From assembly GCF_030028105.1 (NCBI RefSeq), contig NC_092400.1, positions 29,966,206 through 30,030,205 on the forward strand: 64,000 nt of DNA. The letters run 5' to 3'. This document shows, in pieces, positions 47,587 to 64,000 of the stretch. Numbering within the stretch: the stretch's first letter is position 1; the number at the start of each line of letters is the position of its first letter. Made by a program: the position numbers and the translations under genes. Source of the DNA: Mobula birostris (Eukaryota). The notes beneath the pieces were generated by a model that ran no database searches, was not told where the DNA came from, and saw only the letters and a program-made list of their open reading frames with translations.

Positions 47587-50500
47587 ATGAGGATTGAGGA
47601 ATTTCTAAAGGCGCCGACCTTGGAGGCATTAGAGGATGCCAGGAAATTAGAATTGGCGACTGTTGCAAAACGGTTGAATCTTTTTAAGGGGAAATTGACA
47701 ATGAGGAGAGTGGAGATGCACAGAGCTATCGTTGAGTATTATGTATCTAAAGGTGTGTTTCCCCACGGGGAGCTGAAGGTGATGTCTATGAGCAAACCTG
47801 GTGGAGAAGCAGTGCAGCTGCAGATGGAAAAATTGAGACTCGAGCACGAGTTCCGAGTCAAGCAGCTAGAATGAGAGGAAAGAGAGAAGCAATTAGAACG
47901 AGAAGAGAAGCAGTTAGAACGGGAGGAGAGAGTAAGGCAGTTAGAACAAGAGAGAGAGAAGGAAAGAGAGCTTGAGCTGGAGAAGTTAAGGATGGCGCTA
48001 GAGAGGGGCCAAATGCCGAACCAAGGTGGAAGGTTCAGGGCGGCCCAGGAGGTTAGGTTGGTTCCCCCATTTGAGGAGGCTGATGTTGATCGGTATTTTC
48101 TACATTTTGAAAAAGTCGCTGCAAGTCAGGACTGGCCGAGGGACAAGTGGGCTGTTTTGCTTCAGAGTGTACTTGAGGGGAAGGCTCAGTAAGCCTACTC
48201 CGCATTGTCAGCAGAAGAGGCCTAGAGATATGATGTGGTGAAAGAGGCTATACTCAGGATTTATGAGTTGGTCCCGGAGGCATACCGGCAAAGGTTCCGG
48301 AATGTGAGGAAGCAGTGGGGCTGCACGTATTTAGAGTTTGTCCGTGAGATGCAGATGTATTGTGAGTGTTGGTGCGCTTCGAAAGGGGTCACTGGCAATT
48401 ATGACAGATTGCTTCAGCTAATACTGATTGAGCAATTTAAAGGTTGTGTCCCTGAAGGTATGAGGCCCTATCTAGATGAGAAAGAGGCAGAAACCTTAGC
48501 CGCAACTGCTAAGTTAGCAGATGAGTACGCGTTAACACACAAAGCAAAGTTTACCCTGAGTAAGAGCTACCAGAAGGGTAATCGAAAGGGCAGAGAAAGT
48601 CCACCGGAAAAGCCAGAAAGTAAACTGGGGACTAGTGAGAAGGATAAGGAAGACAGGAAGCAGTTTGGTAGGAAGCCTCCTGGGGTCATATGCTATAATT
48701 GTGGGAAAGCCGGTCACTTTGCATCCAGGTGCTTTGCCCCAAAGAAGGAGACGGGGAAAGGAAAAACGACGACTCCGACTGGCTATATTGAGCCGGCAAA
48801 CAAACCGCTAGGGGAGAAGAGGTCTGATAGAGTTCAGGAAGGGTGCGAGAAGTTTATTTTGGCCAGGTTGGTGTCGGTGAAGGAGGGGTCAAACCCAGTT
48901 CCAGTACAGATCTGGAGAGACACTGGGGCTTGTTAGTCATTGATCTTAAGGAGGGTGTTAGACTTTGGTTCAGAGACCGAGATTGGGGAGGTCAGTGTGA
49001 TAAAAGGCATTGGGAAAGGGATGAAGCAGTACCTTTGCACCAGGTACACCTAAAAAGTGACTTGGTCTCCAGACTGGTCATGATAGGGATGAGGCCCGAA
49101 TTACGGATGGAAGACGTGGAGGTCTTACTCGGTAACGACCTTGCAGGTGGAGATGTGTACCCAGCAGTAAAGCTGACAAGCAAGCCTGCCAGGACTGAGG
49201 ACCCGCCCATGGACTCACAGGTTTATCCCGTTTGCGCAGTAACTCGGCGCATGTCGAGAAAGACTGCCGAAGCGAATGTAGATTTAGCTGAGACGTTTTT
49301 ACCAGCCTTATACCGGGAGGGGTTAGAAAGTGAGAAGAAGGAGCATAGTGGAGTGGAAGGAAGTGAGGGAGTTGAGGTAGATTTATCATTAGCGAGGAAG
49401 GAATTTATACAGGCACAGGAACGAGACGAGGAGCTGATGGTTTTGACGGAGACAGCTCTCCCCGAAGCAGAAATAAAAAGGGAACCAGTGGGCTATTATG
49501 TGAAGGAGGGAGTACTAATGAGGCAGTGGAGACCCCGTACCGTGCCCGCAGATGAGGAGTGGGGGGTGGTACACCAGGTGGTAGTGCCGAAAATTTATAG
49601 GGACAAGATTTTTAACCCGGCCCACAAGATACCCCTCGGTGGACATTTTTGGGTGAGGAAAACAGTCGGTAGAATTATGAATGAGTTTTACTTGCCAAAC
49701 ATGAGGAAGGATATTATTGAATATTGTAGACGTTGTCTGACGTCAGGTGGTAGAAAAGCCAAACCAGGTCCTGCCTAAAGTGCCCCTTCGACCGATACCC
49801 GCTTTCGGGGAACCTTTTTCACGAATAACTGTGGATTTTGTCGGTCCCCTGCCCAGAACTGCGAGTGGGCGAGAGTATGTGATGACTATGATGTGCGCTG
49901 CCACCAGGTTTCCGGAGGTGGTGCCCCTGGCAAGCATCAAGGCTCCCGCAGTGGTAAAGGCGCTTGTGAAATTTTTCACTATGGTGGGGCTGCCCAGGGA
50001 AATCCAGTCAGATCAGGGGAGTGTCTTCACATCTCACATATTCCGACGGATGTTGGATGAGATGGGAGCAAAGCAGATTTTGGCCTCCGCATACCACCCA
50101 GAGTCCCAAGGGGCGTTGGAAAGATTCCACGCAACATTAAAGACCATGATTAAAATTTATTGTCAAGAGAACGCTAGGGACTGGGATGATGCCTTGCCTC
50201 TTCTGGTATTTGCCGTAAGGGAAATGGTTCAGGTCATTGGGGTTCAGCCCATTTGAGCTCGTCTTTGGTCATCAGCGCAGAGGACCCCTGACCTTACTGA
50301 AAGAGCAATGGTCCAGTCCAGCAGTACAAGTCAATGTGATTGACTATGTTTTAAAATTTTGTGAGAGGCTTAAAAGGATCTGTGACCTTGCCAAAGAAAA
50401 TCTACAACATTCCCAAACTAAAATGAAACAGTGGTATGACAGATGTGCCCGCAAACAAGTGTTTCAAGTAGGCGATAGGGTCTTAGTTCTGTTTCCAGTG

Positions 50501-52155
50501 GTAACCAACCCCCTCCAGGTGAGATTCCACGGTCTGTGCAAAGTGATTAAAAAGATAGACTCTTTGAATTATGTCATCGAAACACTGGACAGACGTAAGC
50601 CAGCCCAATTAGTACACACTAATATGTTAAAAGCTTACCACGATCAGAAAGCAGATCTAGTTAGTGTTATCACGAAAATGAATGAGGCTGGGGTGCCAAG
50701 TGATAAGGGGAAAACCCATCTTGAAAAGATAAATATGGTGCCGACCAGATTGGAGAACTCTATTGTTTTGGCCAACTTTGCTGATAGGGTGTCTCACTTA
50801 AACCCCGAACGGAGCAAGCTGCTGATAAAGCCAATTAACCCGCATGCAGATGTATGTCCCGAGGCGATGCAAGGGTATGGTACATGATGTTGTTGTCACA
50901 TCAGACCAGCCTATTAAGCAACACCCCTATAAGATGAACTTGGAGAAGGGCAAGCTAGTGGAGAAAGAAATTGAACACATGCTAGCCACATATATTATTA
51001 GGCCATCCAAATTGGAATGGGCGTCTCCGTGTGGTTGTCCCGAAAGTCAGTGGGAGCATACGATTCTGTACAGATTACAGAAAAGTGAACTCCATCACAA
51101 AAACTGATGCTTATCCCATCCCAAGGGTAGACGATTGCATCGATAAAGTGGGGAGAGCTAAGTACATCACAAAGATCGATTTGCTAAAAGGGTACTGGTG
51201 CGTTCCTTTAACCGACCGGGCTAGAGAAATCTCAGCATTTGTGACTCCATCCGGGTTATATGAGTATAATGTTTTACCTTTTGGCATGAAAAACGCCCAG
51301 GGACCTTCCAAAGGATGATTAATTCAGTGATAAAAAGGTTAAAGAATGCAGGAGCATATATTGACGATTTAGTGGTCTGGAGTGACACGCGGGAGGAGCA
51401 CATTGTGGTAGTAGAGAAACTGTTTAAACGGCTGTCTGAAGCCAACCTGATAGTGAACCTCGCAAAAAGTGAGTTCGGCCACGCTAAGGTCACTTATCTG
51501 GGGTATGTGGTAGGATAGGGGCAGCTGGTACCGATGCAGGCTAAGGTGCAAGCTATCTCTGGAGTTCCCATCCCGACAGACAAGAGAGCCCTGAGAAGGT
51601 TCTTGGGGATGGTGGGGTACTATCGGAAGTTCTGCAAAAACTTTGCGGATATTACCCTCCCTCTTACTAAGCTCTTGCCGAAGAATGGGAAGTTTGTGTG
51701 GAACGTCTTTGTCAACAAGCCTTCGAGAGTCTGAAGGCGATTCTGTGTCACCACCCTGTATTGAATGCGCCTGACTTTTCAAAACCCTTCTCCCTAGCAG
51801 CAGATGCTAGCGACGAAGCGGTAGGTGAGGTACTGTTGCAGACAAAGAGGAGATTGAACACCCAGTGGCTTATTTTTCTAAGAAGTTTAATGTCCATCAG
51901 AGAAATTATTCCACTGTGGAGAAGGAATTACTGGCAATCATACTAGCATTACAACATTTTGAGGTTTATATTTGTCCGGCACGGAAACCACTGATAATTT
52001 ACACTGATCACAATCCATTAGTGTTTTTGGCCACAATGAAGGATAAAAACAAATGCTTACTAAGTTGGAGCCTGGTCTTACAGGAATTTGATATTAAGAT
52101 AAAACATATAAAAGGAACGGACAATGTGATTGCTGATTGTCTGTCAAGGTGTTAA
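47587..52155 (+). pseudogene. gag-pol of the Gmr1-type element, with multiple stops and frameshifts
   Basis: SCAN-like capsid (YELVPEAYRQRFR...LILIEQF), CCHC knuckle CYNCGKAGHFASRC, protease RDTGA, integrase VDFVGPLP/SDQGS/ERFH, RT YPIPRVDD/KIDLLKGYW/YIDD, RNase H DASD/EKELLAI/TDHNPL/ADCLSR. Confidence 0.93.
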
Positions 52156-54806: not shown

Positions 54807-55112
54807 TCATTTAATGATCTGGAAGTCCGAATAGTCCCGCTGCTGGGTCCGCTTCTGGTTGGTGAATTCAGCCTTCTCTATGCGGGACCTCGGGCTGCCC
54901 GTCTTGCTAAGCCAAGTCTGCATGGCCCTCACCGGCTCATCGGCACCCTGCAGTTGTCCCTTAACTGTTCCTCTTTCGGTGTTCTGCACCCAACCCACCA
55001 GGCCCAGCCGCTTCGCCTCTTTCTGCGTATGTTTGCGGAAGAAGACTCCCTGCACCTTGCCGAACACTTCATAATCCACCGAGACAAGATGCCCCTGACC
55101 ACCCGACGACAT
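54807..55112 (-). CDS. acyp1: Acylphosphatase (ACYP1-like), 101 aa, intronless CDS
   Basis: MSSGGQGHLVSVDYEVFGKVQGVFFRKHTQ...GLVGWVQNTERGTV...GSP...DYSDFQIIK; catalytic Arg (FFR) and Asn (VQN) intact; Kozak GCGACCATG. Confidence 0.92.
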   Translation of the reverse strand: MSSGGQGHLVSVDYEVFGKVQGVFFRKHTQKEAKRLGLVGWVQNTERGTVKGQLQGADEPVRAMQTWLSKTGSPRSRIEKAEFTNQKRTQQRDYSDFQIIK

Positions 55113-56637: not shown

Positions 56638-57095
56638 TTATGAAAAATTGTGGCCAAGTAAATAACCTACAATCATACCACTGAATATACAAACCAAATG
56701 AGCCAGCCATGTACTTAATATTTTGTTATTAATATCCTTTACAGTTAAACTATCATCCTGTAAACAAGCTAAACTCCATTGTTTTAAACAGTTGTTACAT
56801 AATTTGTCTGAATAATTACATCCCACTTCATTCACAAAACAAGGATTATTTTCAAGTAGTATATTGTACAGTTCTTCTTCTGCTTCTTCTCCCCTTTTCA
56901 TTATTAGTTGAACTAGGGCTCTATTTTGTTGAACCTCTGTAATATGAGAGCCAACCTCACGCTCTTCATTTATGTTAATAACATTTTTGAGTCGCAGCTG
57001 TGACCAGATTGGTTGAGTCATTTTAAGACAATAAATAATTTCCTTTTTATGTCTTCGTACAAAATCCACACCTTTCTTCAATTTTTTAAACATAT
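56638..57095 (-). CDS. NLRP1/CARD8-like protein, last exon: CARD, Cys-rich linker and C-terminal transmembrane helix
   Basis: ttttatctccag| phase 1; VDFVRRHKKEII...NRALVQLIMKRGEEAEEELYNILLENNPCFVNEV (ASC/NLRP1-type CARD pattern), then ILSTWLAHLVCIFSGMIVGYLLGHNFS*. Confidence 0.82.
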
Positions 57096-59298: not shown

Positions 59299-59440
59299 CC
59301 GGTTTTATCAGTAATTCCCATAAAACAGCGATTTTATTTTTCTCTGTCAAACTTAGTTTAATACTGTAGTTCATATCTGTGCAATTCACTTCATAAAATG
59401 GTTGCTTTAGATTATACCTGAAGTAGCAGAATTTTATATC
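59299..59440 (-). CDS. NLRP1/CARD8-like protein, FIIND UPA C-terminal exon
   Basis: 142 bp, tttttaatgacag|DIKFCYFRYNLKQPFYEVNCTDMNYSIKLSLTEKNKIAVLWELLIKP+G|gtaagt; cf. NLRP1 ELELCY...QLFSEFY...[22 protein letters not shown]. Confidence 0.88.
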
Positions 59441-61483: not shown

Positions 61484-61606
61484 TGATGGTGTTATTGTCA
61501 CATTTGCACAGGATGTGAGCTTGTATTTCTTGCCATAGGTGAGGGTGATTATTTGTGGTCTTTGAATTTTCATTGATTTTATATTGTTTTCATGCAAGTC
61601 AACTGC
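61484..61606 (-). CDS. NLRP1/CARD8-like protein, FIIND UPA middle exon
   Basis: 123 bp, ttttttgtatttcag|AVDLHENNIKSMKIQRPQIITLTYGKKYKLTSCANVTITPS|gtaagt; cf. NLRP1 AIDDLEMKFQFVRIHKPPP..LYMGCRY...EILPK. Confidence 0.88.
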
Positions 61607-63671: not shown

Positions 63672-63928
63672 CTGTATTAATGCTGAATCATTTGGTAGCA
63701 AATACACGTGGAAGTTTGAAGAATCGGCTTGGAGAGTCTGATATATTAATATGATAGCATGCACAGGCACTTGGCAAACTTGACACAGGATAACACCCAT
63801 AATGGTAAGAGGCTGATTTCTTAATATAGCATGAGATAAAGTCACTTCTGATGGAATTTCCAGGAAGAAAATATTATTTCTGAAACATGCAATGTTGTAT
63901 ACTGCAGAGTACATAGCCTCTCTTGAAC
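63672..63928 (-). CDS. NLRP1/CARD8-like protein, FIIND ZU5/UPA junction exon (upstream exons outside the window)
   Basis: 257 bp, atttttag| phase 1, SREAMYSAVYNIACFRNNIFFLEIPSEVTLSHAILRNQPLTIMGVIL...ILIYQ...FHVYLLPNDSALIQ|gtaatg; cf. NLRP1 AHFKEEGMLLEKPARV..HIVLENPSFSPLGVLL...FHLYLIPSD. Confidence 0.88.
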
Positions 63929-64000
63929 CTAAAAATATTGCGAAGTTTGATGCATTAATAAAGCTAAATTCATTTATAATAAATTAATAAAAATATACCA

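Follow-up and report, generated by a model that had tools for sequence, protein, structure and literature searches.

The FIIND of NLRP1 and CARD8 is regarded as a self-cleaving break point that is necessary for signalling. A locus of Mobula birostris raises the question of what such a domain might do once the residues of that break point have been replaced. The window, by which we mean the whole 64,000-nucleotide stretch analysed here (contig C36:29966206-30030205), carries on its minus strand four exons with AG/GT ends and an open frame throughout. The first (63672..63928, -), a single stop-free frame read from 63928 to 63672, holds the ZU5 end and UPA start of the second FIIND of the gene (FIIND2) and aligns with NLRP1 1180-1259 and CARD8 266-343. 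A second UPA exon (61484..61606, -) is spliced in contigs X1 and X2 from relatives, a third (59299..59440, -) lies within the spliced X2 contig, and both contigs link the FIIND exon to the last coding exon (56638..57095, -), which encodes the CARD, a C-x2-C spacer, the hydrophobic tail and the stop. An earlier sequence-only reading described a frame intact across four exons; the exon ends and the frame support it, but the gene is longer than that reading supposed and extends ~218 kb past the window edge.

The cleavage-site residues of FIIND2 depart clearly from those of the autoproteolytic sensors. At the position of the catalytic His (NLRP1 H1186, CARD8 H270, rat H942) the minus-strand codon is TGT, a Cys (63887-63885). 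The scissile codons (63812-63804) are CCT CTT ACC, Pro-Leu-Thr, followed by ATT for Ile (63803-63801), giving a degenerate site (63801..63812, -) that reads P-L|T-I against S-F|S-P in NLRP1 and S-F|S-L in CARD8. Alignment of the exon to PDB sequences with phmmer (E values of 2.5e-7 for human NLRP1, 7.8e-8 for rat NLRP1 and 4.9e-5 for CARD8) is gap-free from the His past the cleavage site and places C opposite H1186, L/T opposite F1212/S1213 and I opposite P1214 of human NLRP1. Both the catalytic His and the F|S pair are thus absent, with L|T in place of the latter. The codons and the gap-free alignment confirm what had been read from the letters, namely His to Cys, S-F|S to P-L|T and the next Pro to Ile, and the register is further fixed by the cleaved rat UPA chain 7crv_B, which aligns from residue 142 of the orthologue model, the P1' position. 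In CARD8 and NLRP1, replacing the His, or changing the Ser to Ala, is reported to abolish cleavage (PMC3210808; 10.1101/2020.08.13.250241). FIIND2 conserves another His, in an L-S-H motif eight residues before P1 that aligns to NLRP1 H1204, but rescue of cleavage by this residue is unlikely, because human NLRP1 has H1204 and still requires H1186, mutants of which are described as uncleaved (10.1101/2020.08.13.250241).

How unusual these replacements are can be judged from a survey that pooled homologue, representative and cluster searches; it gave 183 domain hits, of which 172 covering both sites were retained, and its counts include isoforms and duplicate models. His occupies the catalytic column in 146 of the 172 domains and Ser the P1' position in 161. 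P1 is Phe in 154 and Leu in 15, and at P2' there are 75 domains with Pro and 60 with Leu. Neither His nor Ser is present in six domains: FIIND2 of Mobula, its chimaera orthologue in two versions, its Narcine orthologue, and domains from a lizard and a cavefish, the last being one domain of a tandem-FIIND protein. On these counts the double loss is rare, not unique, and the change of the Pro means little.

The orthologous site can be read in six species, from RefSeq models or the genome. Cys accompanies L|T in Mobula and the chimaera, L|S in two catsharks and L|A in Narcine, while the skate Rhinoraja has His with L|G; a His together with Ser or Thr occurs in none of the six, and Thr or Ser is present at P1' in four, the chimaera and Mobula among them. 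An Ensembl-type chimaera model (P0007) has His at the column by way of a differently spliced segment, whereas both RefSeq versions have Cys, in register with the other species. The six FIIND2 orthologue domains form one clade with support 1.00, the chimaera basal, in a FastTree analysis of 54 of 151 retained FIIND domains over 248 columns. FIIND2 does not group with mammalian CARD8 in this tree and falls in a chondrichthyan clade of its own, the deeper placement having support 0.74. Identity over the domain is 84% to Narcine, 78% to the skate, 71-73% to the catsharks and 61%, over 199 residues, to the chimaera; over 283 residues the Mobula protein is 96% identical to one from Hemitrygon akajei, which places the genome among the rays. 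When longer orthologues were sought, Narcine and a single frog NLR were the only hits, which is weak evidence, and the ESM Atlas held nothing beyond ordinary FIIND-CARD clusters. That FIIND2 is uncleaved, as had been suspected, is very probable given that no orthologue keeps a His with Ser or Thr, and on sequence grounds it is likely to be an ancient non-cleaving FIIND, the product neither of a new Thr chemistry nor of decay.

Splicing and codon changes in relatives bear on whether the exon is maintained. The X1 contig (2,153 letters) and the X2 contig (2,554 letters), from two studies whose runs are presumed to be RNA, both have the FIIND2 exon spliced to a ZU5 exon on its upstream side and to those of the UPA and the CARD; the acceptor used in X2 lies 9 bases upstream, in frame. 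Relatives X1-X4 show 14 distinct codon changes, tallied away from the piece ends (9 of the 11 differences in X1 and 5 of the 6 in X2), and 9 of these are silent against an expectation of 22% silent sites (binomial p = 0.001; pN/pS ~0.16, with transition bias uncorrected). X4 spans only 63837-63988, and X3, at low depth, lacks 3 bases without loss of frame. No listed change falls in the Cys codon or, in X1, X2 and X3, in the P-L-T-I codons. These patterns indicate that the exon is under purifying selection, and the silent excess, the splicing in relatives and the 61-84% identity to orthologues uphold the view that the locus is not in simple decay. Two further runs, X8 and X9 (presumed RNA), gave no contig over the FIIND-CARD exons and are uninformative on expression. 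A Hemitrygon model (P0003) begins at a Met two residues past the Thr; we considered an internal start there and read it instead as an annotation split, since X1 and X2 include the ZU5 exon that lies before it and the position of the Met is occupied by Lys in Narcine and by Val in the skate.

The replaced residues sit in what is predicted to be a ZU5-UPA fold. An AlphaFold2 model of the catshark orthologue P0004, which is 73% identical over FIIND2 (50-sequence alignment, mean pLDDT 83.6), matches the rat NLRP1 FIIND (7crw_A) with Z 27.6, rmsd 2.9 A, 268 aligned residues and E 4.3e-24, and the CARD8 FIIND (7jn7_B) with Z 25.6; the ankyrin-B and UNC5B supramodules follow at Z 16.2 and 15.5. Pfam agrees, with FIIND and UPA-FIIND matches above cut-off in the Mobula exons and at E 4.8e-31 and 2.2e-21 in the catshark orthologue. 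The CARD (56842..57066, -; Pfam PF00619, E 1.1e-11) is weakly matched to that of CARD8 in sequence (E 0.04), and the CARD8 CARD is the nearest solved structure to that of the orthologue (Z 18.1, rmsd 0.7 A). Between the CARD and the tail, a C-x2-C motif (window 56790-56830, -) is kept in rays and catsharks. Hydropathy predicts a C-terminal transmembrane helix (56653..56721, -), putatively a tail anchor, with a 4-residue tail beyond it; the hydrophobic tail ends in a conserved N-F-S. A 19-residue segment has a mean of 1.85 on the Kyte-Doolittle scale and 1.94 on the GES scale, and Kyte-Doolittle means across five orthologous sequences are moderately hydrophobic at 1.55-1.85. Comparable tails score in 6 of 173 proteins, four of them orthologues and the other two with Ser-rich or repetitive tails. 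The chimaera models stop before the segment, and in the catshark orthologue model it forms a helix (402-425) at pLDDT ~40-60. The earlier suggestion of a membrane scaffold gains support from this conserved, predicted helix. Some 1.5 kb past the FIIND-CARD stop codon, on the same strand, lies a single-exon acylphosphatase ORF (window 54807-55112, -; Pfam PF00708, E 4e-25) with contigs in X1, X2, X8 and X9, and the region ~47587-50887 (+) holds gag/pol-like ORF pieces with a segment resembling integrase, which together look like a broken LTR retroelement.

The broader result lies beyond the window, where we assembled a gene model by homology-guided exon picking over 324 kb, aided by overlapping database models. 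It covers 226 kb in 39 exons and encodes 1,288 amino acids with no internal stop. Its 38 introns are all GT-AG, and those of the linker are all phase 1. Candidate exons near extended positions 157456 (with an in-frame stop), 112396, 107541, 104668, 99448, 97682 and 90645 were left out as homologous or duplicated copies. The order is a ubiquitin-like domain, a first FIIND (FIIND1, ~171-414), an acidic linker of ~430 residues, FIIND2 (889-1134), the CARD and the hydrophobic tail. These parts account for the whole 1,288-residue model, and Pfam scans of P0001, P0157, P0159 and P0004 detected neither NACHT nor LRR. A genome search with the Pfam FIIND profile found at least three loci, namely FIIND2, a same-strand locus 200 kb upstream and a locus on C5. 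The C5 locus (C5:61889478-61904524, +; L022, L025, L026 and L039) is a paralogous FIIND that has His together with S-L|S-P and precedes a death-domain exon (Pfam E 9.6e-11); it groups with cod-type FIINDs in the tree and is the only FIIND found in the Mobula genome with both His and Ser.

The linker, whose disorder we take from its acidic, low-complexity composition, is rich in motifs of the TQT type. Mobula has 6 [TVIL]QT motifs against 0.44 in shuffled sequences, Narcine 7 against 0.76, the skate 8 against 0.46 and a catshark 3 against 0.26; the short chimaera model has 1 against 0.29, which is not significant. One of them, DKGTQTE, fits at every position the natural LC8 consensus as given in PMC3078936, and it occurs in 3 of 173 proteins, all orthologues, as well as in the Mobula model. 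The linker is accordingly put forward as a candidate client region for LC8/DYNLL, with several motifs and predicted multivalent binding. LC8 genes were found in the Mobula genome, as split exons only. Part of the linker is locally triplicated (C36 ~30063000-30081400, loci L005-L007), with three near-identical copies of an 84-base exon and copies of a neighbouring exon, some with stops.

It had also been proposed that the DPP9-binding residues are all replaced and that the protein is DPP9-independent. Comparison with CARD8 and NLRP1 shows the first claim to be wrong and leaves the second without support. Only the position of NLRP1 Pro1214 differs, and in the phmmer alignment CARD8 itself has Leu, not Pro, after the scissile Ser. 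According to the structural report consulted, the C-terminal fragment of CARD8 stays outside the active site of DPP9, DPP9 continues to co-precipitate with the S297A mutant of CARD8, and interface I between ZU5 and DPP9 comprises K272-E274, M276, V277, L278 and E279 (10.1101/2021.01.13.426575). Rat S969A NLRP1 is likewise described in a 1:1 complex with DPP9 (10.1101/2020.08.13.250241), and a further account has rodent NLRP1 and CARD8 binding DPP9 with no need for cleavage and ZU5 alone suppressing the free C-terminal fragment (PMC11760013). In Mobula the strand equivalent to CARD8 K272-E279 reads R-N-N-I-F-F-L-E (63858..63881, -; alignment to 7jkq_B), and its interface residues, R,N,N,F,F,L,E against K,N,E,M,V,L,E in CARD8, appear largely conservative. 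As uncleaved FIINDs bind DPP9 through ZU5, loss of cleavage would abolish the site-B role but need not abolish DPP9 binding; two loci of the DPP8/9 family occur in the Mobula genome. The UPA-UPA face is half conserved. CARD8 L368/F370 correspond to L/Y, encoded in the second UPA exon, while R394/F405/Y406 become F/V/N in the catshark orthologue; this loss of face IIIa weakens the idea that the protein reproduces the site-A role of CARD8 directly.

We hold with moderate confidence that the protein is an uncleaved, LC8-dimerised, tail-anchored CARD scaffold that is restrained by default, the LC8, membrane and restraint steps being proposals. FIIND2 would be an uncleaved ZU5-UPA scaffold holding a CARD8-like CARD beside the predicted C-terminal membrane anchor. 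Neither FIIND would cleave in rays, because Tyr in FIIND1 and Cys in FIIND2 stand in place of the His. The tail would insert in an intracellular membrane and leave the CARD facing the cytosol, and LC8/DYNLL dimers on the TQT motifs would zip one chain to another, so that CARD clustering would be set by LC8 occupancy and membrane density, not by release of UPA-CARD. Intact ZU5 would remain on UPA, as in full-length S-to-A CARD8. The default output would be restraint, with the protein binding free UPA or CARD partners, and possibly DPP9 on ZU5, and seeding no filaments. Against this scaffold stands the Thr or Ser at P1' in four of six species, which a dead site would not need.

A wider form of the scaffold reading is tentative, and we offer it as a possibility. 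It is that a double-FIIND membrane CARD platform, in which LC8-driven multivalent clustering replaced autoproteolysis and functional degradation, has been kept in cartilaginous fishes since the chimaera-shark split. If true, an inflammasome-type CARD assembled from NLRP1/CARD8 parts would be under the control of a dynein-light-chain rheostat at the surface of an organelle.

The sequence-only reading, made without sight of the upstream ubiquitin-like domain and FIIND1, supposed that the protein would not work by functional degradation; a doubtful alternative moves that process upstream. A cut in FIIND1, or proteasomal trimming from the ubiquitin-like N-terminus, would free a UPA1-linker-FIIND2-CARD-TM fragment that clusters at the membrane and activates caspase, FIIND2 being a stable, uncleaved part of it. 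FIIND1 (C36:30221361-30221614, -) points both ways. Its T-F|S-L is intact in Mobula and kept in every elasmobranch sequence examined, and in the bamboo shark the His is present as well, making that FIIND1 canonical; however, Tyr replaces the His in Mobula, Narcine, three skates and one catshark, and mammalian His mutants are uncleaved. The ubiquitin-like domain (Pfam E 3.2e-9 in Hemitrygon) is suitably placed at the N-terminus, but a degron role for it is conjecture. The alternative also draws on the chimaera, where the gene neighbouring FIIND2 is a canonical FIIND-CARD, and on lungfish ubiquitin-like-FIIND proteins. A complex prediction for the catshark FIIND1 and FIIND2 domains scored 0.00 and is uninformative either way. 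The two lungfish proteins have non-canonical sites of their own, one with His and F|T and the other with Tyr and W|S (P0019 and P0023), and they suggest that the pairing of ubiquitin-like domain and FIIND is older than the shark-bony fish split or arose twice.

It is unlikely that the locus is instead two adjacent genes, one for a soluble ubiquitin-like-FIIND1 protein and one for a TQT-linker-FIIND2-CARD-TM protein, joined by read-through only in some models; FIIND2 would still be an uncleaved scaffold. The annotations of both catsharks, Rhinoraja, Amblyraja and Hemitrygon have two separate loci, one contig of the chimaera bears both its canonical FIIND-CARD gene and its FIIND2 gene, a repeat tail of its own closes the catshark FIIND1 model, and the spliced X1 and X2 contigs reach no further than 973 and 1,406 letters beyond the exon on its upstream side. 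Other models bridge the gap. Amblyraja P0159 extends from the ubiquitin-like domain across FIIND1 and into the TQT linker, Rhinoraja P0002 leads from the TQT region into FIIND2, Hemitrygon P0006 has FIIND1-ZU5 connected to FIIND2-ZU5, and Narcine P0001 covers everything, aligning end to end with the Mobula model at 66% over 1,382 columns. The uniform GT-AG introns, the shared phase of the linker introns and the absence of an internal stop also speak against two genes. A single FIIND1-FIIND2 chain is likely in rays and unproven in sharks. Residues 1-180 of Narcine P0001 hold an integrase-like piece (Pfam rve) and a short repeat, probably misfused to the true start.

FIIND2 is very unlikely to cleave itself by another chemistry, with Thr or Ser as the nucleophile, the Cys or a different His as its activator, and a membrane-bound UPA-CARD-TM fragment as the product released. 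The P1' hydroxyl kept in Mobula, the chimaera and two catsharks could be read in its favour, as could the L|S site of a His-containing FIIND such as the C5 paralogue and the F|T site of the His-bearing lungfish FIIND; Thr and Cys are described as nucleophiles in N-O and N-S acyl shifts (PMC3210808). The Ala of Narcine and the Gly of the skate are no nucleophiles, however, and the skate also lacks the Cys. With the complete pair of His and hydroxyl missing from every orthologue, and any nucleophile missing from two, conservation of a Thr mechanism is improbable, and the "different Thr chemistry" once suggested for this site is rejected as a general mechanism in view of Ser in the catsharks and Ala and Gly elsewhere at P1'. 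Neutral decay of the domain or gene, or an alignment out of register, is scarcely credible, for although several database models are truncated or split, the alignment is gap-free, the structural match is close, contigs from two studies are spliced, silent changes are in excess and the chimaera orthologue is still 61% identical.

If a FIIND-CARD has indeed been uncleavable from chimaeras to rays, the domain would have a job independent of cleavage, and these animals would offer a natural test of whether an intact ZU5-UPA represses free fragments, binds DPP9 or serves as a scaffold. A membrane anchor and an array of LC8 motifs on a CARD8-like CARD, if real, would be a new way of setting the threshold for CARD clustering. 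The elasmobranch FIIND1, with Tyr or His beside F|S, and the lungfish domain with His and F|T add natural variants from which the minimal cleavage chemistry might be defined.

CARD8- and NLRP1-like proteins have been reported across jawed vertebrates (PMC11258412), and parts of the Mobula arrangement have precedents in the tandem FIINDs of teleost database proteins and the ubiquitin-like-FIIND proteins of lungfish. Among the titles and abstracts of top-ranked papers, drawn largely from openly available journals, we found no account of the Mobula gene or its architecture, no membrane-anchored or LC8-linked FIIND protein, no FIIND work on elasmobranchs and, in a search for LC8 with a FIIND protein, no link between them. 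By its residues, the Mobula protein is a member of the FIIND family that lacks the defining features of the autoproteolytic NLRP1/CARD8 sensors. With human CARD8, a ZU5-UPA-CARD inflammasome sensor regulated by DPP9, it shares the FIIND fold, a CARD that most resembles that of CARD8, a P2' residue other than Pro and a similar interface-I strand; unlike CARD8, it has no His/Ser pair and adds a ubiquitin-like domain, FIIND1, the TQT linker and the predicted membrane anchor. NLRP1 of human and rodents is the best structural match for FIIND2 and likewise places a FIIND before a CARD, whereas the Mobula protein has no NACHT, LRR, His or F|S-P. Mouse Nlrp1b allele 3 is reported to have an uncleaved FIIND through V988D (PMC3334886). 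That is one allelic change, whereas the non-canonical state of FIIND2 is lineage-wide and conserved.

Other families supply separate parts of the comparison. The UNC5B and ankyrin supramodules, which are not known to be cleaved, act as intact ZU5-UPA scaffolds beside a death-fold domain, and FIIND2 belongs to the same fold family (3g5b, E 1.1e-11; 4d8o, E 2.1e-11). By sequence, though, it belongs with the FIINDs: in structural alignments it is 28% identical to NLRP1 and only 9-13% to UNC5B and ankyrin, and the Mobula protein differs from them in having a CARD in place of a death domain and a predicted C-terminal membrane segment. MAVS and CARD19/BinCARD-2 combine a CARD with a C-terminal membrane helix, as the Mobula protein is predicted to do from hydropathy, but they have no FIIND. 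The Mobula-type CARD is closer to the CARDs of CARD8, ASC and NLRC4 than to that of BinCARD (Z 18.1 against 13.6), and the short tail without basic residues may mean that the target membrane differs from that of MAVS and CARD19. Finally, ASCIZ and KANK1 are multivalent clients of LC8/DYNLL, and the Mobula linker resembles them in carrying several TQT-type motifs, one a full match to the consensus, in an acidic, low-complexity sequence, which makes it a candidate for the same kind of binding.
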